Shown here piece by piece: positions 43,008 to 59,804 of a stretch of DNA of 64,000 nt. Every line of letters begins with the position of its first letter. Position 1 is the first letter of the stretch. The notes under the pieces were generated by a model. That model did not search any database, was not told the DNA's origin, and was given only the letters and a program-made list of their open reading frames with translations. The stretch lies in IMG/VR virus record IMGVR_UViG_3300029915_000003; one strand, written 5' to 3'. This DNA is from a virus. The position numbers and the translations under genes were made by a program.

Positions 43008-43083
43008 TGGCAGAGGGGGTTGGGATCGAACCAACTATTTACGCTTTTGGAGAGCGTCGTCTTACCGTTAAGACTTCCCCTCT
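43008..43083 (-). tRNA. tRNA-Trp (CCA)
   Basis: Cloverleaf: AGAGGGG/CCCCTCT acceptor, ACGCT-CT CCA AA-AGCGT anticodon arm, GTTGG-TTCGATC-CCAAC T arm, encoded 3' CCA. Confidence 0.93.
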
Positions 43084-49079: not shown

Positions 49080-50015
49080 TTAAAAAATATCCTTACTGAA
49101 TCCTACCTTGGAATCGGTTGATTCTGACTTTGGTTTGTTCTTCAATGCTTTTATACGGGCTGCTACTTCGTGGAGTTCCCCACCCATACATTTAACAGAA
49201 ACTACCAATTCCTTAATATGACCAAGACTAAAACCTTTAGTTAAACCAAGCCACTCTTGGTATTGTTCTTCTGTTAATTCATCTGTTAGCTTATACTTTA
49301 GGTATTGTAACTTTACATCATCATCTGGCAAGCCAAACTCAAGTCTCCTATCGAAACGGGAGGGACGGTCGGTGAGTCTACCATCTAACTTTTCTGGGTA
49401 ATTTGTGGTAGCTATATTGACGGTATTGGCAACAGAAAATTGACCATCCAAAATAGCCAAAAGGTCTGCTTCGTTACCCTTTTCAATCATTGCGTCTATA
49501 TCTTCCAAAAGCACCAATAAGGGGGTATCTTTGTTAACCTTACGTATATCCTGTAGGGCGTTTTTAAGATACCAAGCGTTATCAGCCATGAGAACGATTC
49601 CTCCGTTGCGGAAGAACTCTCTGGCTATTAAAGCAGTTATACTACTTTTACCACAACCAGGGGGACCATGTAAAAGATACCCACGTTTATGACTAAATCC
49701 ATATTTAAGGTAAACTTCTTTTTTGGTGAAAAACTCCTGTATTTCTTGTAATATAATATTTACAGGTCCCTTTTCGGATACTATTAAATCATCCGTAGAA
49801 ATCTTTATACTACGTAAGGAAACATTTGATAACCCATCTCCATCTACCGCTACGTAGTAACCAGGAGGAAGGGTTTCTTGTATACCCAAGGTACTACCCA
49901 TCTCCATCCATTTTTCCAATGGACGCATTTTGGATTTATCCGGAACGGTTGACACCGATATGGTATCGTTGCCAAGGTAAATATACTTCGGTTCTTTTTT
50001 AGGGTTATCAGTCAT
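49080..50015 (-). CDS. AAA+ ATPase (classic AAA clade, single domain)
   Basis: LLHGPPGCGKS, LLEDID, TTNY, RPSRFDR. Confidence 0.9.
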   Translation of the reverse strand: MTDNPKKEPKYIYLGNDTISVSTVPDKSKMRPLEKWMEMGSTLGIQETLPPGYYVAVDGDGLSNVSLRSIKISTDDLIVSEKGPVNIILQEIQEFFTKKEVYLKYGFSHKRGYLLHGPPGCGKSSITALIAREFFRNGGIVLMADNAWYLKNALQDIRKVNKDTPLLVLLEDIDAMIEKGNEADLLAILDGQFSVANTVNIATTNYPEKLDGRLTDRPSRFDRRLEFGLPDDDVKLQYLKYKLTDELTEEQYQEWLGLTKGFSLGHIKELVVSVKCMGGELHEVAARIKALKNKPKSESTDSKVGFSKDIF

Positions 50016-50034
50016 TTTTTACCTATTTTAAATT

Positions 50035-50110
50035 TGGCTGTGGAGGATGGGGTTGAACCATCGACATTCGGATTAACAGTCCGACGCTCTGCCAACTGAG
50101 CTACTCCACA
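50035..50110 (-). tRNA. tRNA-Asn (GTT)
   Basis: TGTGGAG/CTCCACA acceptor, GCTC/GAGC D arm, TCGGA-CT GTT AA-TCCGA anticodon arm, encoded 3' CCA. Confidence 0.94.
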
Positions 50111-50154
50111 TTTTCTATAAAGAACCTTAACATAGGTATCCTTGCGTTGTCAAT

Positions 50155-50655
50155 CATTAAAAGTTACTTTACATTACAACCGTTACGTATTTAGCTTTAT
50201 CTCCCTTTCTTTACGTTAAGCAAATTCTATTGGGTTCCTTAGCAAGATAGGGTTTCTACGTTTACCGGTGTTTGGGTATTTACAGAGTTTAGGGCAGCTT
50301 ATTCAGCTTTAATTGGCATTTACGGGGATTTACTGTTGTCTAATAGTATAGACATAGCTATTCATTGATTTATCTTATTTGCTTTGGGTTGATAATTTTA
50401 TTAGGTAAGGTTTCTTTAGAATCTATTTAGTTTAATTATCTTCTAAAGGGATCTATTTAGAACCAGGGGTTGCTTTTCTTATCTAATTAAGGTAAGGTTG
50501 TTTTTAACTTTTTCGAAGGTAACCGTTACGTTTGTTACCAAAGATGGAGAAGCCCTATTATACTGGTTTCAAAAAACGTGTCAAGACAATTCTTTAGTAA
50601 CGGTACTTTTTGTTGTAAGTGCCCAAGGTTCCTACCGAAAAGTTACTTTTCTTCT
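50155..50655. other. non-coding strand-switch region with short repeats; candidate replication origin
   Basis: No ORF; strong T skew on the + strand; repeated AACCGTTACGT, AAAAGTTACTTT, ATCTATTTAG, AGGTAAGGTT; divergent promoters. Confidence 0.5.
50557..50584 (-). promoter_or_regulatory. consensus sigma70 promoter firing into the non-coding region
   Basis: TTGACA-16-TATAAT on the minus strand. Confidence 0.7.
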
Positions 50656-50683
50656 TGACTTCTATTGAAAATACCGGTAATAT
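50655..50683 (+). promoter_or_regulatory. sigma70-type promoter, probably giving a leaderless mRNA
   Basis: TTGACT-17-TAATAT, 7 nt before ATG 50691. Confidence 0.65.
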
Positions 50684-50690
50684 ACCTTAT

Positions 50691-51275
50691 ATGAACAACA
50701 AAAAGCCTTTACTGGTTAACTTTATAGGGGCTCCAGCCAGTGGTAAGACCACCGTAGCTGCCCTCACCTTCGGTGCTCTTAAGGAAGCTTCGGTACCCTG
50801 CGAACTGCTTACAGAGGTAGCGAGGAAACACATAGTTGGTCTTAAATATGTTAATAGGTGGAGCAATCCCCCCTGGAATGGTATTTTAACCGATAGAGAC
50901 CAGAACGATATCTACATTGGCGAACTCTACCAAACAGAACGCTACGTTACGGTTTGTTCCCCAGAAACTGTTATAATTAGTGATTCCAGTCCAATAAATG
51001 CTATTATTTATAACCGTAGGTTGTCTAGTGACAAAATCATAATTAACGACTGGTTAGCTTACTGTAATCCCTTGTTCTTCTACTCCACCCCGGTACCTAA
51101 TAATTTGGACACCTTGGACTCCAACCGAGTCCACTCTATCGAACAAATACACAATGCAGACCGGGAGATCCCCGGAATTATAGAAGAGTTAGGGTTGGAA
51201 GTTATTACCCTTAATGGTAATTCCAACCAACGCCAACTTCAATGTCTTCATGCAATATATGACAGGTTGGCCTAA
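50691..51275 (+). CDS. NadR/Ttd14-type P-loop kinase/ATPase
   Basis: GAPASGKTT, TEVAR, IISDSSP, NRVH; start moved to ATG 50691. Confidence 0.75.
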   Translation: MNNKKPLLVNFIGAPASGKTTVAALTFGALKEASVPCELLTEVARKHIVGLKYVNRWSNPPWNGILTDRDQNDIYIGELYQTERYVTVCSPETVIISDSSPINAIIYNRRLSSDKIIINDWLAYCNPLFFYSTPVPNNLDTLDSNRVHSIEQIHNADREIPGIIEELGLEVITLNGNSNQRQLQCLHAIYDRLA

Positions 51276-51280
51276 ACCAG

Positions 51281-52759
51281 TTGTTATCAATAGTAGAACC
51301 CACCAGGGTTAATATAGATGAAAACGCTCCCATAGATGCCATTCGTAAGTATTTGGCATTTAAAGACATGGGTGTTTTATATCAAATAAAACAATTTAAA
51401 GCCAACAAGTGGTTATTGAAGAAAATAACCAACGAAGAGTGGAGTGAACGCCTACACTCCCTAGAGGCTCAAGTTGACCGTTCTGCTTTGTTTGAAGACT
51501 CGAATGGGTACTACACCTATAGTGGTTTAGCTGAAGATTTATCCCAGCAGTTTGGGCTGCATTTAACCAATACAATTAAATACACCAAACCAACTCCGTT
51601 GTCTTGGACCCATACTCCTCCAGATTTAAGGTACTTTCAAGAGGATGTAGTTAAGTTGTTTCTACAGCACAAACACGCTGCGGTTAATCTTGCCGTAGGT
51701 ATGGGGAAATCCTACATAGCCCTACATATAGCCCAAAGGCTAGGATTGAAAACCGTTGTAATGGTACCCTTTTCAGCTATAGCAAACCAATTGTACGCTA
51801 CGTTCACTAAACATCTCGGTAAATATAGGGTGGGCATGTTTGGGGACGGTCGCAAGGACACCAGTAAACTCATAACCATAGCCGTGGCTCAATCGTTGGT
51901 TAGGGTCGAGGAGGGAACACCCGAATGGGACGACCTGCAAGGGGTCAAGGTGCTCGTTTCAGATGAGTCCCATATGAACCCAGCCTCAACCCTGGAGGGT
52001 GTCTGTATGGGGCTCCTACGCAACGCAGAGTACCGTTTTGCTTTGTCTGGTACTCAGCTGCGTAGCGATGGTAGCGAAATTGTCCTTAAGGGTCTAGTAG
52101 GGCCTATTGTTTACAGTAAAAACATACAAGACGGAGTTAGAGAGGGTTTTCTAGCCAAACCCAAGTTTATTGTATATCGCTATAACAGCCAAGATCCCTA
52201 TCGCTCTGCCGATACCAACAAGATGACCCAAAAACATTTATACTTAAATCCGGATATAAACACCCTGGTTGCCAATATAGTAAACATCAGTTCTGGCAAG
52301 ATGGGTCAGTCCGTTTTGGTGTTAATTGATGAGTTTGGTCAATTTAATATGATTTACCCTCAATTTACATCAAATTTCAAATTTGCCCATGGGGGAGCCA
52401 CCAAGGCCAACAAAAAACACATTCCTCCTGAATTCTGGAAATCAGAACCATTGGATTTAATTGAAGAATTTAACCAGTTAAAGTTTCCGGTAATGGTTGG
52501 AACCTCTTGTTGCTCAACCGGAGCTGACTTTAAGGTGCCCAAAACCGTTATTTACCTAAGAGGGGGAAAGTCTGAAATAGATTTCACCCAAAGTCTAGGT
52601 AGAGGAGTAAGGAAATTTGATAATGGTACTTATAAGAAGGACTCCTTCACCTTTATTGATTTTTGGTGTCGGAACGTACCAGCCTTGGATCGTCACGCTA
52701 AGGCCAGAATAGCTTATATGAAAGCTATTGGTGGGGATATAAAGATTATTGATATTTAA
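51281..52759 (+). CDS. superfamily 2 DNA helicase (UvsW-like)
   Basis: LRYFQ, AVGMGKS, DESH, SGT, TGAD, QSLGRGVR. Confidence 0.9.
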   Translation: MLSIVEPTRVNIDENAPIDAIRKYLAFKDMGVLYQIKQFKANKWLLKKITNEEWSERLHSLEAQVDRSALFEDSNGYYTYSGLAEDLSQQFGLHLTNTIKYTKPTPLSWTHTPPDLRYFQEDVVKLFLQHKHAAVNLAVGMGKSYIALHIAQRLGLKTVVMVPFSAIANQLYATFTKHLGKYRVGMFGDGRKDTSKLITIAVAQSLVRVEEGTPEWDDLQGVKVLVSDESHMNPASTLEGVCMGLLRNAEYRFALSGTQLRSDGSEIVLKGLVGPIVYSKNIQDGVREGFLAKPKFIVYRYNSQDPYRSADTNKMTQKHLYLNPDINTLVANIVNISSGKMGQSVLVLIDEFGQFNMIYPQFTSNFKFAHGGATKANKKHIPPEFWKSEPLDLIEEFNQLKFPVMVGTSCCSTGADFKVPKTVIYLRGGKSEIDFTQSLGRGVRKFDNGTYKKDSFTFIDFWCRNVPALDRHAKARIAYMKAIGGDIKIIDI

Positions 52760-52768
52760 ATAAGATAC

Positions 52769-52796
52769 TTGACAATTGCTTTCTTTAGTATATACT
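52769..52796 (+). promoter_or_regulatory. sigma70-type promoter upstream of the sigma-factor operon
   Basis: TTGACA-16-TATACT, 10 nt before ATG 52807. Confidence 0.65.
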
Positions 52797-52806
52797 GGTA
52801 AAAAAA

Positions 52807-53154
52807 ATGAATATCGAACTAAAATTAATAGGTTATCACTTAACGGATGGTTCCAAGAAGGAATTTGAATGTCCTGGGTGTGGACTTTGGTATCCAACTA
52901 AAGAAAAAACCCTTAACTGTATCAAAAAGTTCCATTCAATGTCTAATGATTGGGAATACAAGAAGATAGAGGCTAATAATGGAGATATACTCCATATGGC
53001 TCAAGGCGTTGCTTCCAAGCCCAAATCAGAAGAAATTACCGATGAGTTCGACATAGTTAACAGTATGGCTAGTTCAGGAGAAGTTCCCCCAGAAGTAGTC
53101 AAAATACTCAAAAACCGTATACCTAAAAAGGCAACAAAAGGAAAGAACGAATAG
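52807..53154 (+). CDS. hypothetical zinc-finger protein
   Basis: FECPGCG...NCIKKFH. Confidence 0.55.
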   Translation: MNIELKLIGYHLTDGSKKEFECPGCGLWYPTKEKTLNCIKKFHSMSNDWEYKKIEANNGDILHMAQGVASKPKSEEITDEFDIVNSMASSGEVPPEVVKILKNRIPKKATKGKNE

Positions 53155-53160
53155 ATATTA

Positions 53161-55428
53161 ATGGCTTCATCTCAAGACCAGCATTTTGCTAACTTTCAAA
53201 AGATACTATCCTCCAAGATAGTTGCCTATGGAGAGCACCAAGGCTCTGAAAAGGACTTTATTAAGTCTCAAAAGAAGCAAGTTCTTAAGCTTTCAAAGCT
53301 GGAAGAGATGTTTCGTAAGGAACTATTACGAACTCCTCATGGTTTGCAGGTCTACATGGAATTTATCAACTTCATTAGGGATGACCGAAAGAATATATTA
53401 GATGCCAGACCTTACTTTCGTATAAGACAAGACGTGTTCACCAAGAAGGTATCCCCAGCCTTACGAACCAGGGATCCAAAGAACATACAAAAGTGTCATT
53501 TTAACTTTACCTTTATTTCATTTGCCATGAAATATGTAGTGTTATCACCCAATGACCCATTAACAGATATTTACGAAGAACTTAAAGAAGTAAGGAATAA
53601 GCTAATAGAAGTGAACACACCTTTGGCAATAGCCAGAAGCAGCCAATTCTATCGTAAAACTAAAAGAAATCACTTAACCCGCATGGACCTAATCCAGGTG
53701 GCGTTGGAAGGTTTGACTGCTGGAATAGACAAGTTTTGCGGTATTTACGACAATACCAAATACCGTCATATGCTTATAGGCAGAATTACGGGCAATCTAA
53801 TTGAGGCTTATTGTATTGACGAAAACACAATATTAAACCCAATAGGCCAGCCTCCAAAGAAGATTTCAGAGTTTATTCCTGGTGATAAGATTTTAGGAAT
53901 TGATGATTCTGGGGCTATTATAGAAACAGAAGTTGTAGCATTACACGATCATGGCGTCGTGGACGGCTATGAGGTTGAATTTGCCGATGGGTATAAGATA
54001 ATATGCTCAAAAAATCACAAATTCCTTACAGAAGAAGGTCAAATCCCAATTCACGAAATAGTATCCAGAGGCTTGGGTGTGCTTTGTGAGCCCACCAATG
54101 AAAACTGGTGGTTGGACAACTCATTGCCAAATGGTTCTACCGTCCAAGAGAAAGATGTATGCTCACAAAAAAGTATGTCCAATCTGCAAAACACTGGTAT
54201 ACGAGACCCGGCGCTCGAATGGGCTGAAACTAACCTTACATCAAACTCTAACCGAAGGATGGAAAAGTCTGTGCGGTCAGACTTTTCGAACACGTCGATT
54301 GTTTTACAGTCACAGAAAAAACTGTCAGGTTTGTCAAAAAGCCATATTGGAGGGACTTGTCGCAAGGGCCAAGAATTGGCGGAACAAGAACATGGAACGT
54401 GTTCTAGAGCACATGCGGAATATTTCGATAGCATTTCAGGAGTCTTTACAAAAAAGACCAGACCTAAAATCGAAACACACAGAAAAGGTGAAACAAGCTT
54501 CCATGGAATGGAGGTCGAAGAATCCAGAGGAATTCATCCTCAACATGAAAAAAGCCTGGGCCGCTCAGAAACCATCCAAGATGGAAGCGTGGTTACGGTC
54601 AAGCGGAACTATAACCTGGGACGATGTTCAAATCAGATGCGGAAAGGAAAGAAAGCAGGTGGACTTCGTTTCTCCGGATCACAAAATATGGGTAGAAGTG
54701 GATGGGAGCTTTCACTTCAAAGAAGTATCGACGAAGCCGTTGAAGCAGAGATTGCCAAAGATTCAGCAACGGGATGCCATGTTGAAGACGGAGGCCCTAT
54801 TGAGGAAAGATGTGACTTTGATCCGATTAGCGGCGGATTGTTTCTATGCGACTGGCATACTAAAAGAGCCTTGGAGGGTGTGGCTATCAAACATGCTCCT
54901 CTCACCTCGACCAGGGGTTTGGTGTTGCGGAAAGTTGTACGATTTAGCCCCATGGGCACAAGAAGGATGTACGATCTTGAGGTCGCCCACCCCAAACATA
55001 ACTTCCTTTTGCCTAACGGAATAGTTACTAGCAATTCCGAAACAATGGTTCATTTTTACCCAACAGACAAGAGAAAACTGTATAATGCAAACAAAGTAAT
55101 GAATAAATGTCGTACAGAGGATTTTCAAGAAATATCTGCCAGGGTAAATGATTTAGCTAAAGAGCATTTATACACCACTACCCCAGAAGAAGTAACACAT
55201 TTAGTGGCAGCTAGTAATCTAATTAATGCCGACTTCTCACCTCCCGCCCATTCCGGTGATAACCAAACCAAGACTATACAAGATACGATGCAGTATGCCG
55301 ATGTACCGGAAAAACAACCAGATATAGGTTATGAAGCACATGAATTGAGCGGCAAGTTAGCACAAGCAATACGCAAATTAACAGTATTTGAGCAAAAACT
55401 ACTAAGACTCAAGGGAATGGAATTTTAA
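53161..55428 (+). CDS. phage sigma70-family RNA polymerase sigma factor containing an intein; region 4.2 missing
   Basis: RNKLIEVNTPLAIARSSQF..MDLIQVALEGLTAGIDKF is region 2; ends LAQAIRKLTVFEQKLLRLKGMEF (region 4.1 only); 347-aa extein. Confidence 0.85.
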   Translation: MASSQDQHFANFQKILSSKIVAYGEHQGSEKDFIKSQKKQVLKLSKLEEMFRKELLRTPHGLQVYMEFINFIRDDRKNILDARPYFRIRQDVFTKKVSPALRTRDPKNIQKCHFNFTFISFAMKYVVLSPNDPLTDIYEELKEVRNKLIEVNTPLAIARSSQFYRKTKRNHLTRMDLIQVALEGLTAGIDKFCGIYDNTKYRHMLIGRITGNLIEAYCIDENTILNPIGQPPKKISEFIPGDKILGIDDSGAIIETEVVALHDHGVVDGYEVEFADGYKIICSKNHKFLTEEGQIPIHEIVSRGLGVLCEPTNENWWLDNSLPNGSTVQEKDVCSQKSMSNLQNTGIRDPALEWAETNLTSNSNRRMEKSVRSDFSNTSIVLQSQKKLSGLSKSHIGGTCRKGQELAEQEHGTCSRAHAEYFDSISGVFTKKTRPKIETHRKGETSFHGMEVEESRGIHPQHEKSLGRSETIQDGSVVTVKRNYNLGRCSNQMRKGKKAGGLRFSGSQNMGRSGWELSLQRSIDEAVEAEIAKDSATGCHVEDGGPIEERCDFDPISGGLFLCDWHTKRALEGVAIKHAPLTSTRGLVLRKVVRFSPMGTRRMYDLEVAHPKHNFLLPNGIVTSNSETMVHFYPTDKRKLYNANKVMNKCRTEDFQEISARVNDLAKEHLYTTTPEEVTHLVAASNLINADFSPPAHSGDNQTKTIQDTMQYADVPEKQPDIGYEAHELSGKLAQAIRKLTVFEQKLLRLKGMEF
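53812..55035 (+). mobile_element. intein (408 aa) in the sigma factor, with no in-frame endonuclease
   Basis: Y|CIDENT start, ICSKNHKFLT block B, MYDLEV..HNFLL block F, ends IVTSN|S. Confidence 0.9.
54077..55024 (+). CDS. Vsr/DUF559-like (PD-(D/E)XK fold) endonuclease overprinted in the +1 frame inside the sigma intein
   Basis: KPSKME..VDFVSPDHKIWVEVDGSFHF..QRD..VTLIRL; N-terminal CPIC, C..HRKNC and CQVC zinc-type motifs; AGAGG before GTG 54077 (alternative ATG 54098). Confidence 0.8.
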   Translation: MCFVSPPMKTGGWTTHCQMVLPSKRKMYAHKKVCPICKTLVYETRRSNGLKLTLHQTLTEGWKSLCGQTFRTRRLFYSHRKNCQVCQKAILEGLVARAKNWRNKNMERVLEHMRNISIAFQESLQKRPDLKSKHTEKVKQASMEWRSKNPEEFILNMKKAWAAQKPSKMEAWLRSSGTITWDDVQIRCGKERKQVDFVSPDHKIWVEVDGSFHFKEVSTKPLKQRLPKIQQRDAMLKTEALLRKDVTLIRLAADCFYATGILKEPWRVWLSNMLLSPRPGVWCCGKLYDLAPWAQEGCTILRSPTPNITSFCLTE

Positions 55429-55429
55429 T

Positions 55430-55825
55430 ATGGACAAACCTACTTTCGTTATAGATAATTTTACAGACGCAACGCCTGCTCCGGAATGGTTTAAATCACC
55501 TGAAGGTCCAGTTAATGGACAAACCAAAACTGTAGCTTTTACAGTGAATGGACAAATAGCGGTAGAACCTTTTCAGGCCACCACGACCCTTAAGACTGTT
55601 AAGAGGGGTGGTTTGAGGGTGTTAGACCAAACAATTAGCCTTATTAAGACCAAAGCCGTATTTGACTACAAGGATTCAGATCTAGAGGTTTGCAGAGGAG
55701 GAAGTATTTATCTCAAGGGGAATGTAGGATTCCAAGCTTGGGCCAAACAGGTTTATGAATACGAGGGGATTAAATTCGTATTAGTTCCAAAGACTGAAAT
55801 CGTAATGGTTAACAATAATGGCTAA
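55430..55825 (+). CDS. GroES/gp31-like co-chaperonin
   Basis: GQIAVEP..KRGGLRVL, LEVCRGGSIYL, YEGIKFVLVPKTEIVMV align by eye to GroES strands and mobile loop. Confidence 0.6.
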   Translation: MDKPTFVIDNFTDATPAPEWFKSPEGPVNGQTKTVAFTVNGQIAVEPFQATTTLKTVKRGGLRVLDQTISLIKTKAVFDYKDSDLEVCRGGSIYLKGNVGFQAWAKQVYEYEGIKFVLVPKTEIVMVNNNG

Positions 55826-56837
55826 TTATTTAGTAGTTGGAGATTATCATGCGGTAGCTACGGAGTTGGACGAGTGCGCTCGTCTGATGGAGCGAATTTA
55901 CAAACTCCAAGAAACCGATAAGTGGGATGGTATTGTATTCTTGGGAGACCAATATCACTCATTTGCTAATATAAACGCATATGTAATGGATTTTTGGACT
56001 AAATCATTTTCTGAACTAAAGACAAGATTTAAGGATGTGATAGCTCTGGTTGGTAATCACGACCAACCTGGAGACAATACGGATGAAGTCAAGATCCACT
56101 CCATGATTCCTCATAAATCACAAATTACAGTAATAGATAAGCCAACTATTATAGATAATATGCTGTTTATGCCTTATTATCACAAGGAGGAAACTTGGTT
56201 GAATCACTATAATGAGCAAAATCACTCTTCATTTCATACAGTTGTAGCACATCAAACATTCCAAGGGTGCATGTACGAAAACGGATTTTACGCCAAAGAT
56301 GGTTTTGGTGTAGAAAACGTCCAGCACAATATAATCAGCGGTCACATTCATAAATTCCAAGATCTACGTAACAATCAACATCCATACAAAATGATTTATC
56401 CTGGAAGTCCCCGTTGGAGAAATGTCAGTGATACAAATGAAGGTAAATCTCTTTTTGATTTACATGTAAATCAGGATACTTTCCAACTAGCAGAAGCGTT
56501 AGATACAAATGAGGTTTGCTCTAAAATGCATCATATTGAGTTTGTCGAACCAGAAAGCACCAACAAGTTTCTTCCTAAAATTAAGGATAACGATAGGATT
56601 GTAGTGGATATTAAAGGTTCAGAAGCTTATATTAAGTCTGTTTTACCAGAAATATCTACCTGGGCTACTAGAATCAGGGTGTTTCCACAAAATCAAAAGA
56701 AGGTAACCGTTTCCGAGCAAAAATCCATAGAGGAGAGCTTGAAGGATTTTCTTTCCAACATCAAGGCCCCCAACGGAACACATCCAGACTGTTTATTAAG
56801 TAACGTAAAACGGAGGTTACATGCAGAGGAAGAATAG
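55818..56837 (+). CDS. SbcD/Mre11/gp47-like nuclease
   Basis: GDYH, FLGD, GNHD, AHQ, SGHIH, YPGSP. Confidence 0.9.
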   Translation: MANYLVVGDYHAVATELDECARLMERIYKLQETDKWDGIVFLGDQYHSFANINAYVMDFWTKSFSELKTRFKDVIALVGNHDQPGDNTDEVKIHSMIPHKSQITVIDKPTIIDNMLFMPYYHKEETWLNHYNEQNHSSFHTVVAHQTFQGCMYENGFYAKDGFGVENVQHNIISGHIHKFQDLRNNQHPYKMIYPGSPRWRNVSDTNEGKSLFDLHVNQDTFQLAEALDTNEVCSKMHHIEFVEPESTNKFLPKIKDNDRIVVDIKGSEAYIKSVLPEISTWATRIRVFPQNQKKVTVSEQKSIEESLKDFLSNIKAPNGTHPDCLLSNVKRRLHAEEE

Positions 56838-57168
56838 AGAAGAACCAGAAGTAACACCTCAAGCTAAAGAGATTATTACCAAGATAAAATTGGCAATGGA
56901 TCTCTTTAGACGTACAGGTGTCTTACACGATGTGCTAGCAGAACAATTAAAGCATTTATGTAGGTTTTATCTATTGGACCAAATATCCAGACTAGACCGT
57001 CTTGAGTTGGATTACGATTTGGAGGATCCCGATTACCCAAGGAAGGTAATCTTTATAGTAAACTCACCTTCAAAAACCATTAAATGTCCGCCGTTATTAA
57101 AGAAATTCACTAAATACTTACTTGGTGAAGAGTTCAAAGTAATGGTAAAAGTAGAAAAGAAACCTTAA
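56821..57168 (+). CDS. hypothetical protein
   Basis: 115 aa, GGAGG RBS. Confidence 0.6.
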   Translation: MQRKNREEPEVTPQAKEIITKIKLAMDLFRRTGVLHDVLAEQLKHLCRFYLLDQISRLDRLELDYDLEDPDYPRKVIFIVNSPSKTIKCPPLLKKFTKYLLGEEFKVMVKVEKKP

Positions 57169-57169
57169 A

Positions 57170-57868
57170 ATGACCACCCTGACCCTCCCAGATTCAAAAC
57201 TAGCTCTATTGAGCGAAGGTGAACTAAAGGAATACGAAGATTTCCAACAATCGTTCCAAATGCCGCTGGCATACGATGTTGCGGAGGGATTCTACAAGAC
57301 ATTCGAAAAAGGTCGTACCTGCGAAGAGATATGCTCTGCAAACCTAGGTGTGGGGCTTGGATCTGTACTTGACGCTAGGATTAGGTTTAATTGGGATGCC
57401 CGGCGTGGACGCTATGAGTCTATGTTGGAATCTACCATGAAGTCAAAGTCACTTCATTCTCAGGCTACTGCTCTGAGTTTCGTTTCAGATCTTATAAGTG
57501 TAACCCAAATGAAACACCAAGAAGCCATTAATAACTATATGGCCACCAAGGATCCTAAGTTCTTAGAAAATACAATACAAATAACCAATGTTAGGGATTA
57601 CAAATGCCTCGTGGAAATTCAAATGTTACTTTCTGGCCCTCCCGGTGGCCCCATACCGGTTCCCGGCAATACAGTTGTATATAATCAACAATTAGTAAAT
57701 ATGCCGGGAAATGGTCAGCCTCCCATTACGGTAACAATTGAACCCGAGGACCACCGTAAGTTCTTAGCCGAAAAGGCAGAAGAAATCAGCAAAGCAGACG
57801 AGGAGAGGGCTCGTGTAGCGGCAGCTGTAAGGAAACACAAAAAGAATGCAGAATCAGAGAATGGCTAG
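57170..57868 (+). CDS. probable terminase small subunit
   Basis: Helical 232 aa directly upstream of terL; HTH-like segment followed by FNWDARR. Confidence 0.5.
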   Translation: MTTLTLPDSKLALLSEGELKEYEDFQQSFQMPLAYDVAEGFYKTFEKGRTCEEICSANLGVGLGSVLDARIRFNWDARRGRYESMLESTMKSKSLHSQATALSFVSDLISVTQMKHQEAINNYMATKDPKFLENTIQITNVRDYKCLVEIQMLLSGPPGGPIPVPGNTVVYNQQLVNMPGNGQPPITVTIEPEDHRKFLAEKAEEISKADEERARVAAAVRKHKKNAESENG

Positions 57869-59804
57869 TAAGAAACCAGTTGCAATAGCCCCCGCAGACC
57901 CTCTTAATCAATCCAAAGAGCGTCGGTATCTGTTTGTTCCTTGCCAATCCAAGAAGGAACTCAAAAACTGGATCCGAGTCTATTTGGGTTTAGATTATCC
58001 AGACGGAAGAGTAGATCCTTCTTCTAATTCAGATCCAATGAGTTTGCTTTGGGAATTATACAGTGCGGCTGTAGATCCAGACAGAGAATGGGAGCGTTTA
58101 TTGGGGTATGCTTCACGATTCTCGTTTAAGACGCTATCCGCCTCTATTTTGGAGTTATTGTTTTTGATCCATCATGGTCGCAACATAGCCCATATGGCTG
58201 CCCTAGAAGCTCAAGCCCAAAACTCTCAAGAATATATCAAGAAGTTCCTTAAATTACCTATATTTAATGGATTCTTATTAAAAGATAACACTCGCGAGCT
58301 ATTCTTTAGTCGTTACTTAGATCCAGTAACAAACATGTCCTTTACCGAAAAGGAAGTACCTCTCCTACCAACAGAAATAAGGGATAGGCTACAAAATTTA
58401 GTAAATTACATTAAAATCATTGTTGCCACTACGGCTTCAGCTAATGGTCTGCACACCAATCTGGTTGTATTGGACGAAGTAGATCTTATAACAAATAAAG
58501 AAGCCTACAATGAAGCAAAACTCATACCAACCGAAGAAAAGGGTTTTAGACCTATAACTTTTTTGACTTCTACCCGTAAATACTCTATTGGTTTAGTCCA
58601 AAAAGAAATAGACGCAGCGGCTGAAACTGGTCTTGAGGTAAGACACTGGAATATTTTAGACGTTACCGAGCGTTGTACAGAGGCTAGACACCAACCAACC
58701 AAAACCAAACTACCTATATATCGTTCTCAGAAACTACTCAAGGCTATTTCAGAAGAAGACTTTGAGCGATTGGATATAGCTTCCAAAGAAAAATACGTAA
58801 AAGATGAAGGGTATTGGGGGTGCTTGAATGAATGTAAGTTATTTGCTGCCTGCAAGGGGAACCTAGTCAAACAAACCAATGGTTCTTCTATATTGAAGTC
58901 TATTGGCCATATTATACAACAGTTCTCTATTAATGACCCAGAGAGAGCTAACGCTCAATTGCTTTGCAATAAACCCTCCAAAGAGGGTATGATTTACCCA
59001 AATCTTGATGCAGAGATCCATTTTAAATCAGCCCAGCAAATTGCCAATATGATTACGGGGGAGGAGTTCCCAGAAAAATACACCCAAAAAGAACTAATAG
59101 GATTGGCTCAATCTCTAGATTGTAGATTCGTGTCTGGTATGGATCATGGCTATACCCATAACTTTGCGGTATGTACTGGATTCATATATGGTAATAAGTT
59201 ATTTATGATTGATTCTTTTGCTGTTCCAGAACTAGAAATAAGCCAAAAGATCAATTTGTGCAACGATCGTATTAAACACCTAGACCCAACTATATATCCA
59301 GACCCAGCCGATCCGGGTTCCAGGAAGACTTTTATTAATCACGGATACAAATGTAAGGAATTCAAAAAAGGTCCCGGTTCTGTATTGGAGGGTATCAATG
59401 CAGTTAGAACCAAACTCATGCCCTCTTTAGGTAGGGAACCAGAGGTTTATTTCATTAAGGACAACGATGGTGTATTGAATTTATTTGGAGATCTATCTAA
59501 ATACCATTGGATCGTAGGTGTAGACGAAAAACCAACAGATGTTCCAGATGACGATAACGATGACAGTGCTGATGCCTTTAGATATCTTATTATGAATGAG
59601 TTTCCACTCAAAAAGAAGAACAGAAACGCTTCGGAAGGCTCCGAATTACCCTATCTTTACCAAGAAAAGCCAATTTCCGAGCCTACTGTTGAGAATTTCA
59701 TCACAAATCGCCTAGAAGCACTGGGAGTTTCACGTTCAAATGAAGATTTAGACCAAAATACCAACAAAAACGACTCCAAGTCTAGCATAAAGTGGAGATT
59801 TTAA
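57861..59804 (+). CDS. terL: terminase large subunit
   Basis: ASRFSFKT (variant Walker A), VVLDEVD, TST, EGMIYP, GMDHG, DPADP, DDSADAFRY; start 57861 or 57846. Confidence 0.9.
   Translation: MASKKPVAIAPADPLNQSKERRYLFVPCQSKKELKNWIRVYLGLDYPDGRVDPSSNSDPMSLLWELYSAAVDPDREWERLLGYASRFSFKTLSASILELLFLIHHGRNIAHMAALEAQAQNSQEYIKKFLKLPIFNGFLLKDNTRELFFSRYLDPVTNMSFTEKEVPLLPTEIRDRLQNLVNYIKIIVATTASANGLHTNLVVLDEVDLITNKEAYNEAKLIPTEEKGFRPITFLTSTRKYSIGLVQKEIDAAAETGLEVRHWNILDVTERCTEARHQPTKTKLPIYRSQKLLKAISEEDFERLDIASKEKYVKDEGYWGCLNECKLFAACKGNLVKQTNGSSILKSIGHIIQQFSINDPERANAQLLCNKPSKEGMIYPNLDAEIHFKSAQQIANMITGEEFPEKYTQKELIGLAQSLDCRFVSGMDHGYTHNFAVCTGFIYGNKLFMIDSFAVPELEISQKINLCNDRIKHLDPTIYPDPADPGSRKTFINHGYKCKEFKKGPGSVLEGINAVRTKLMPSLGREPEVYFIKDNDGVLNLFGDLSKYHWIVGVDEKPTDVPDDDNDDSADAFRYLIMNEFPLKKKNRNASEGSELPYLYQEKPISEPTVENFITNRLEALGVSRSNEDLDQNTNKNDSKSSIKWRF

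Follow-up and report, generated by a model that had tools for sequence, protein, structure and literature searches.

Inteins whose nuclease is read out of frame with the host protein have been described in several settings. A cyanobacterial dnaX intein carries a same-strand overlapping LAGLIDADG '+2 ORF' with a putative Shine-Dalgarno (SD) sequence (Phillips 2026, bioRxiv 10.64898/2026.09.14.751524). Full inteins of actinobacteriophages have an Endo VII-like nuclease in frame 3 or a Vsr-like, possibly EDxHD, nuclease in antisense orientation, and invasion by a free-standing nuclease was proposed as the origin of these non-canonical elements (Gosselin, Arsenault, Gogarten, bioRxiv 10.1101/2025.01.02.630785). 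In fractured genes, a split intein is accompanied by a free-standing Vsr-like endonuclease, the end of which overlaps the start of the C-terminal intein half (IntC) by 6-69 bp (Dassa et al. 2009, PMC2677866). Here we describe an intein in a phage sigma-70-like factor gene which carries, on the same strand and in the +1 frame, the gene of a predicted Vsr/EDxHD-fold nuclease. It lies in a 64,000-nt stretch (the window) of the IMG/VR virus record IMGVR_UViG_3300029915_000003, a 126-kb record whose DNA occurs in peat metagenomes. We read it as a mobile cis-splicing intein with a separately translated overlapping homing nuclease, to which we give a probability of about 85%.

The general design is already published, also for phages, as the original prediction made from this sequence had suspected (Gosselin 2025; Phillips 2026); the same-strand Vsr/EDxHD type and the sigma-factor host, which is outside the usual DNA-metabolism targets, extend the range of out-of-frame intein nucleases. 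The dnaX intein shares with the window element its contiguity, a disordered host-frame loop, purifying selection on the nuclease frame and the occurrence of empty and mini alleles, but has a LAGLIDADG enzyme in a bacterial host, whereas the window family has Vsr/EDxHD nucleases, phage sigma, DnaE and other hosts, and an overlap that extends into the C-terminal splicing strands. The actinobacteriophage elements are likewise full inteins with an out-of-frame nuclease, although the Vsr-like ones are antisense and ours is same-strand. Nuclease type, strand and position between the intein halves are common to the fractured genes and the window, and sister loci at the DnaE site have the fractured layout; in fractured genes, however, the host frame is broken and splicing occurs in trans, while the window has a continuous host frame and an overlap of ~130 nt. 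I-Bth0305I, a group I intron-encoded EDxHD homing endonuclease with NUMOD repeats (Taylor et al. 2011, PMC3239194), resembles the window nuclease in its C-terminal Vsr-fold domain, its E-D-x-H-D pattern and its N-terminal putative DNA-binding part, but the window nuclease has Cys/His repeats and a helical region instead of NUMOD repeats, and no sequence-level match between the two was detected. The ShiLan element also combines an out-of-frame nuclease and a GTG start with an open host frame (Arsenault et al. 2025, PMC11855218), but its nuclease is of the HNH type and there is no splicing domain. A search of the openly accessible literature found no report of a same-strand Vsr type, a sigma-70-like host, an overlap into splicing strands or a continuous-to-split transition, and nothing relevant on inteins with DUF559 or in sigma factors.

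The host open reading frame (ORF; 53161-55428, 755 aa), with its intein blocks, and the +1 ORF (54077-55024, 315 aa) both exist and contain no stops, as predicted. The +1 frame opens after a TAG at 54059-61 and closes at the TAG at 55022-24, 11 nt 5' of the intein end. The third frame over the same DNA contains 23 stops, and the 960 nt open in two frames here make up the longest same-strand double-open stretch of the whole record (runner-up, 666 nt). The genome, thought at first to be AT-rich, is only moderately so (41.9% GC; 44% in the intein).

Synonymous shuffling of codons within each nuclease gene (5000 shuffles per locus, 19 loci) shows that the host frame is kept free of stops. Shuffled versions of the window gene have a mean of 12.3 host-frame stops and none of the 5000 is stop-free, against an observed count of zero; likewise, none of the 19 full-length loci has a host-frame stop where 7-21 are expected in each, and no shuffle reached zero. 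Synonymous T-ending codons that would create a stop are used at none of 938 opportunities in these loci, as compared with 24-56% elsewhere. Relatives in which the host frame has been freed serve as natural controls, with 30 host-frame stops in locus L080 and 34-59 in fractured relatives, and in internally deleted alleles most of the nuclease is lost and the host frame is still open. In the intein middle the codon-position pattern is that of the nuclease frame (0.57/0.65/0.40, third positions being the most variable), in the N-terminal splicing region that of the host frame (0.57/0.68/0.34), and mean amino-acid identity over the filler is 0.14-0.26 in the host frame vs 0.26-0.49 in the nuclease frame. 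Because conservation of the intein middle follows the nuclease frame, the host-frame filler is without sequence function. The idea, put forward in the original prediction, that selection keeps the intein frame open is borne out by the shuffles and unused stop opportunities, and the comparison of homologues that it proposed, by codon position and for stops, gives the same picture. These results support a division in which selection on the host frame acts on the absence of stops and on the two splicing halves only, and selection on the +1 frame acts on the nuclease.

Over ~130 nt the last core strand of the nuclease and the C-terminal splicing strands of the intein share doubly constrained DNA, a clean natural case of double protein constraint. 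Host-frame four-fold sites are 0.72 identical there (first half, 0.87) vs 0.27 in the single-coding N-terminal region, and the host-frame and nuclease models are both confident, that is, structured, over this interval. The nuclease strand PGVWCCGKLY is overprinted on the intein strand GLVLRKV; its PG-x-x-x-G-x-x-Y pattern is kept in distant nucleases that stop there and lies inside the Vsr alignment. The last ~20 nuclease residues look more like read-through of block F (0.48). Coordinates of all features are given in Table 1.

Table 1. Features of the sigma-factor intein, its overlapping nuclease gene and the surrounding DNA (window positions).
Feature	Position	Strand	Basis
N-extein, 217 aa, of the phage sigma-70-like factor, ending in a region-2 segment (..GRITGNLIEAY)	53161..53811	+	Profile, PHROG and Atlas
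Intein N-terminal splicing region; Cys1 at 53812, block-B His at 54016-18	53812..54085	+	Pfam; model and Foldseek
SD-like GGGTG, 6-nt spacer and GTG start, within the codons of the last N-terminal intein strand (GVLCEP)	54075..54088	+	Conserved start, SD pairing
Predicted +1-frame endonuclease, 312 aa: two Cys/His zinc-type repeats, basic helical region, Vsr/EDxHD catalytic domain	54086..55024	+	AlphaFold, structure matches
Host-frame filler loop, ~270 aa, stop-free, predicted disordered, poorly conserved	54089..54895	+	pLDDT, identity
Double-function overlap: nuclease terminal core strand (PGVWCCGKLY) and tail over GLVLRKV ... MYDLEV ... HNF (C-terminal strands, block F)	54896..55024	+	Four-fold sites, models
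Block G Val-Thr-Ser-Asn (penultimate Ser, not His), then +1 Ser	55024..55035	+	Sequence; terminal Asn invariant in 19 inteins
C-extein, 130 aa, of the sigma-like factor	55036..55428	+	Aligns with intein-less P0158-P0161
Helicase	51281-52759		Neighbourhood conserved in relatives
Metallophosphoesterase	55818-56837		Neighbourhood conserved in relatives
Terminase large subunit	57846-59804		Neighbourhood conserved in relatives
tRNA-Asn	50035-50110		
tRNA-Trp	43008-43083		

Modelling supports the assignment of the +1 product to the Vsr/EDxHD fold. In a VIA comparison with 48,161 chains, its AlphaFold model (mean predicted local distance difference test score, pLDDT, 81.8) was best matched by Vsr (1cw0; Z 10.1, root-mean-square deviation (rmsd) 2.9, 118 aligned) followed by I-Bth0305I (3r3p; Z 8.1, rmsd 2.8, 92 aligned), and the DUF559 structure 3hrl scored Z 6.9; the Vsr-like fold, zinc-type motifs and basic helical region that had been proposed from the sequence are all found in the model or the translation. 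The putative catalytic residues (E 54584, D 54662, E-x-D, H 54713 and D 54773, in window positions) are all intact. In the numbering of the 315-aa ORF, the 14 close homologues (alignment A1) share E170, D196, E207, D209, H213 and D233 without exception, and alignment A6 keeps the same set except for E170, which is outside or variable there; their correspondence with E170/D196/N208/H213/D222 of I-Bth0305I was established by order and motif and not by residue-level superposition. A DnaE member (L018/L027) has Tyr in place of the last catalytic Asp. The Pfam DUF559 family is matched at E 0.07 by the window nuclease and at best at 6e-5 by its relatives, and the Atlas neighbours are DUF559/zf-C2H2 proteins. 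A scan of viral contigs with the single nuclease sequence gave no match, and L002 was a false match.

The intein itself (53812-55035, 408 aa, IEAY/CIDENT ... VTSN/SETM, slashes marking the splice junctions) is a class 1 intein by its predicted Hint fold, residue set and precise insertion, and is presumed to splice. It matches Pfam Intein_splicing (PF14890) at E 1.1e-6, under the curated gathering score; the N-terminal splicing region was modelled at a pLDDT of ~90, and a model of both intein ends matches the Npu DnaE intein in Foldseek (E 1.5e-6, rmsd 1.5 A over 98 columns) as well as Ssp DnaE, Mtu RecA and other inteins. In the host-frame model, beta strands are predicted with confidence at either end of the intein and the pLDDT is ~30 for residues 322-583, in keeping with the original description of the loop as filler. 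The window intein has C1, KNHKF, MYDLEV, HNF, the terminal Asn and a +1 Ser, and the block-B His, the block-F Asp and His and the terminal Asn are invariant across 19 intein members. Its penultimate residue is Ser, as in most members, with His found only in the L032-L034 branch and Cys in L031; a penultimate His is usual, not universal, in class 1 inteins. Thr, which is unusual as a first intein residue, takes the place of Cys or Ser in L018, L021, L070, L078 and L083, all with a penultimate Ser.

The host is, by its region 2, a divergent phage sigma-70-like factor. A profile of the intein-less alleles matches region 2 of sigma70/SigA in the PDB (best E 9.4e-5, profile positions 128-204), the intein-less protein P0160 matches PHROG 351 (sigma factor; E 1.9e-7), and the nearest Atlas clusters are viral (score 0.98), one of them being named SigB/F/G. 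The Pfam sigma-70 match of the host is weak (E 0.014), and the protein, for which C-terminal helices are predicted, ends without a clear region-4 match. Four intein-less proteins (P0158-P0161, 348-360 aa) match both exteins with 41-60% identity, and the window protein minus its intein aligns end to end with the intein-less alleles. The search for such alleles proposed at the outset found the exact empty junction IEAY/SETM in P0160 and 24 empty sigma alleles that align across the site. Some empty sigma alleles (P0159, P0161, L050, L052/L053) have Asn at +1, where a splicing intein could not be accommodated, and are possibly resistant.

The two frames, the two folds, the avoidance of stops, the frame-specific conservation, the start signal described below, the empty alleles and the patchy distribution are all computed from the data, and suggest how one mRNA may yield two proteins from an element composed of a mobile cis-splicing class 1 intein and a separate, overlapping homing endonuclease gene. 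Ribosomes from the sigma ATG would read the full host frame; the Hint domain would then fold around the disordered 270-aa loop, splice out and join IEAY to SETM to produce a 347-aa sigma factor. Other ribosomes would begin at the internal SD/GTG at 54086 and produce the 312-aa Vsr/EDxHD-type nuclease. At a target site in intein-less sigma alleles of co-infecting phages this nuclease would cut, and repair would copy the whole element in, completing homing.

The nuclease start is probably GTG 54086-88 (312 aa; SD pairing, -8.9 kcal/mol), three codons 3' of the GTG at 54077 which the original prediction had chosen with an AGAGG sequence and which is found only in the window, with a weaker SD (-5.8). 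Counting from the block-B His, 15 of 20 loci have a GTG or ATG at codon +21 to +24, in most cases with GGAGG/GGGGTG 5-7 nt upstream, and L017, L019 and L021, in which the GTG is lost or without SD, have an ATG with an SD (-6.5 to -7.7) 7-8 codons further on. The nuclease might instead be produced by +1 frameshifting between 54062 and ~54100, as a fusion of N-extein, N-terminal intein half (IntN) and nuclease: the +1 frame is already open 24 nt 5' of the GTG, a distant relative (P0085/L059) has a natural in-frame IntN-nuclease fusion, and conservation of the xGVLCEP codons could by itself account for the GTG and the G-rich SD. There is, however, no conserved slippery sequence in the aligned family DNA, and the 5-7 nt spacing between SD and start is kept across differing amino-acid sequences and re-created where the GTG is lost. 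Given a conserved start and SD and no conserved slippery site, internal initiation is preferred and frameshifting appears unlikely; of the two routes that had been envisaged, separate translation is the favoured one. A T4-style control by a hairpin and late promoter over the nuclease start found no support: a hairpin at 54050-54090, over SD and GTG as in T4-type nuclease genes and the fractured genes of Dassa et al., can form (-12.5 kcal/mol, z ~ -1; family-wide p = 0.13) but is not significant, TATAAT and ATA codons are not enriched and no promoter-like site was found there; a candidate late motif, CAATTTTA, is absent just 5' of the start.

We found no point in support of an assembly or sequencing artefact, in which compensating indels would hide an in-frame nuclease, or of an RNA intron removing the middle of the intein, and consider either extremely improbable. 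The identical 755-aa protein is present on 15 contigs, which excludes an indel artefact; L003 has 0 differences from the window over 2268 nt, contigs of two further DNA runs have neither indels nor joints, and all relatives have the same phase, which settles the indel question raised by the original prediction. The essential block F is overlapped, in a different frame, by the end of the nuclease gene, so nuclease and intein cannot be one polypeptide, and an RNA intron over the intein middle was rejected, Rfam giving no match. A C>T change at 54573 in a single low-depth contig may be an error, and two metatranscriptome runs contained short pieces of the locus only. It is also conceivable that a real nuclease no longer homes in this lineage, or that the intein has been retained because its splicing switches phage transcription. 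The family includes decayed alleles and the Tyr-bearing DnaE member, and dependence on splicing could in principle allow regulation of a sigma factor; yet the catalytic set of the window is complete, and the closest sigma relatives (P0158 and P0159, ~60% identical) lack the intein, which the sigma factor therefore does not need, making these explanations very unlikely. Some of our results weigh against a mobile intein with a separately translated homing nuclease. The Foldseek match of the nuclease to Vsr is weak (E 0.011), and nuclease profiles matched no solved structure among the PDB sequences. Chosen starts pair at -5.9 or stronger in 18 of 19 loci as compared with 21% of 1418 background NTG codons, a contrast somewhat inflated, since SD strength had a part in the choice of starts, and in the same test pairing is weak for the genome's first-ATG starts (median -3.95). 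Because of the penultimate Ser, and because several relatives start with Ser or Thr, efficient splicing is an assumption. The patchy distribution could include losses, and a shared DNA target motif is not evident in the flanks of the different host sites.

Every close homologue of the nuclease with readable DNA is encoded in the +1 frame of an intein of this same family, which comprises, besides the window, ~27 distinct loci, mostly phage, with a continuous host frame (four partial). Their hosts are the sigma factor, DnaE (at GFNK/SHA), a TOPRIM-like gene identified only by a motif, and a gene that belongs to no Pfam family. The nuclease stop falls 8 or 11 nt 5' of the intein end in 17 of 20 full-length members, and the nuclease overlaps the C-terminal splicing region in every member examined. 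Nuclease and intein travel together between host genes; the initial notion of a free-standing nuclease sheltering in an intein was right about the overlap layout and understated this coupling. Five intein-bearing sigma alleles, set against the 24 empty ones, fall in three separate clades, each adjoining empty alleles (Shimodaira-Hasegawa-like approximate likelihood ratio test (SH-aLRT) support only), a distribution consistent with lateral spread or homing. On a midpoint-rooted tree, the nucleases of sigma, TOPRIM-like and no-Pfam hosts group together (100/99), separately from those of DnaE, consistent with host switching. No relatives were found among 50,697 GenBank phage records, and the window's own record has no other member of the family; species genomes gave a single relative, on a 164-kb contig of a Myxococcales metagenome-assembled genome, which may be binned phage. 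The no-Pfam host gene (..PVQELMY/STL..) is that of L008, L011, L014, L015 and L066, with a different insertion site in L008/L011, and precedes a PBECR5-domain protein in L007; the 40-kb contig IMGVR_UViG_3300037520_002447 (L015, L020) carries two different members, in this gene and in DnaE.

The family also comprises a mini-intein (L094), Dassa-type fractured loci (L084-L093, a sister clade), deleted alleles and the in-frame IntN-nuclease fusion of L059. A host gene in two ORFs is seen only in the relatives L006, L080 and L084-L093, not in the window, and two of these fractured alleles, L006 and L080, are nested among continuous members. The sigma allele L006 is sister to the continuous L012 (100/100); 11 of 20 stop opportunities are used upstream of position 2730 and 0 of 40 downstream (p 5e-7), there is a new ATG at this boundary (SD -8.9), and called gene lengths are repeated in a second assembly. 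Its interval 2515-2743 has 11 host-frame stops in 215 nt, then the strong-SD ATG, with the frame open to the end. The L006 intein has probably been newly split, which leaves IntC with a junk leader of 180 aa. In the DnaE locus L080 (854-1737), which groups with L017/L019/L021/L064 (SH-aLRT 99), the host frame is fully fractured, with 30 stops, and an IntC ATG at 1573 overlaps the last 51 nuclease codons. Read most simply, the midpoint-rooted tree suggests that split inteins working in trans can arise by decay of continuous double coding, a step which the model of Dassa et al. (PMC2677866) does not include and which L006 and L080 appear to show, although both could be dead genes. We lean, by a narrow margin, towards a broader scheme in which double coding is old and stable, the shared strands lock nuclease to intein, and the arrangement is the direct precursor of split inteins, host-frame stops arising from synonymous changes in the nuclease and the C-terminal half being rescued by a new internal SD/ATG, with L006 as an early and L080 as a late stage. 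As most of the proposed life-cycle states (empty, mini, fractured, double-coded, deleted and newly split) occur side by side, the family makes it possible to test in what order the steps towards split inteins took place, and it is a source of candidate split inteins. Internally deleted alleles with an open host frame (L071, L072, L077, L078, L082, L083) keep +1-frame nuclease remnants. L059 (4003-5340, P0085) has a DnaE fragment, a complete mini-intein and then the in-frame fusion and a stop, with no IntC called within 3 kb downstream of the fusion.

Gene callers keep one frame only, so that such elements are mis-annotated and undercounted: the sigma factor was called and the nuclease missed in L003/L004, while in L007/L010 the nuclease was called and the host fragmented. 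Around the intein, the gene neighbourhood at 49826-59804 is kept in relatives. Elsewhere in the record (~1.5-41 kb, 91.6 kb and 104-105 kb), the motif CAATTTTA/AATTTTAA is ~10-fold enriched before gene starts and is a candidate promoter for the phage sigma factor.

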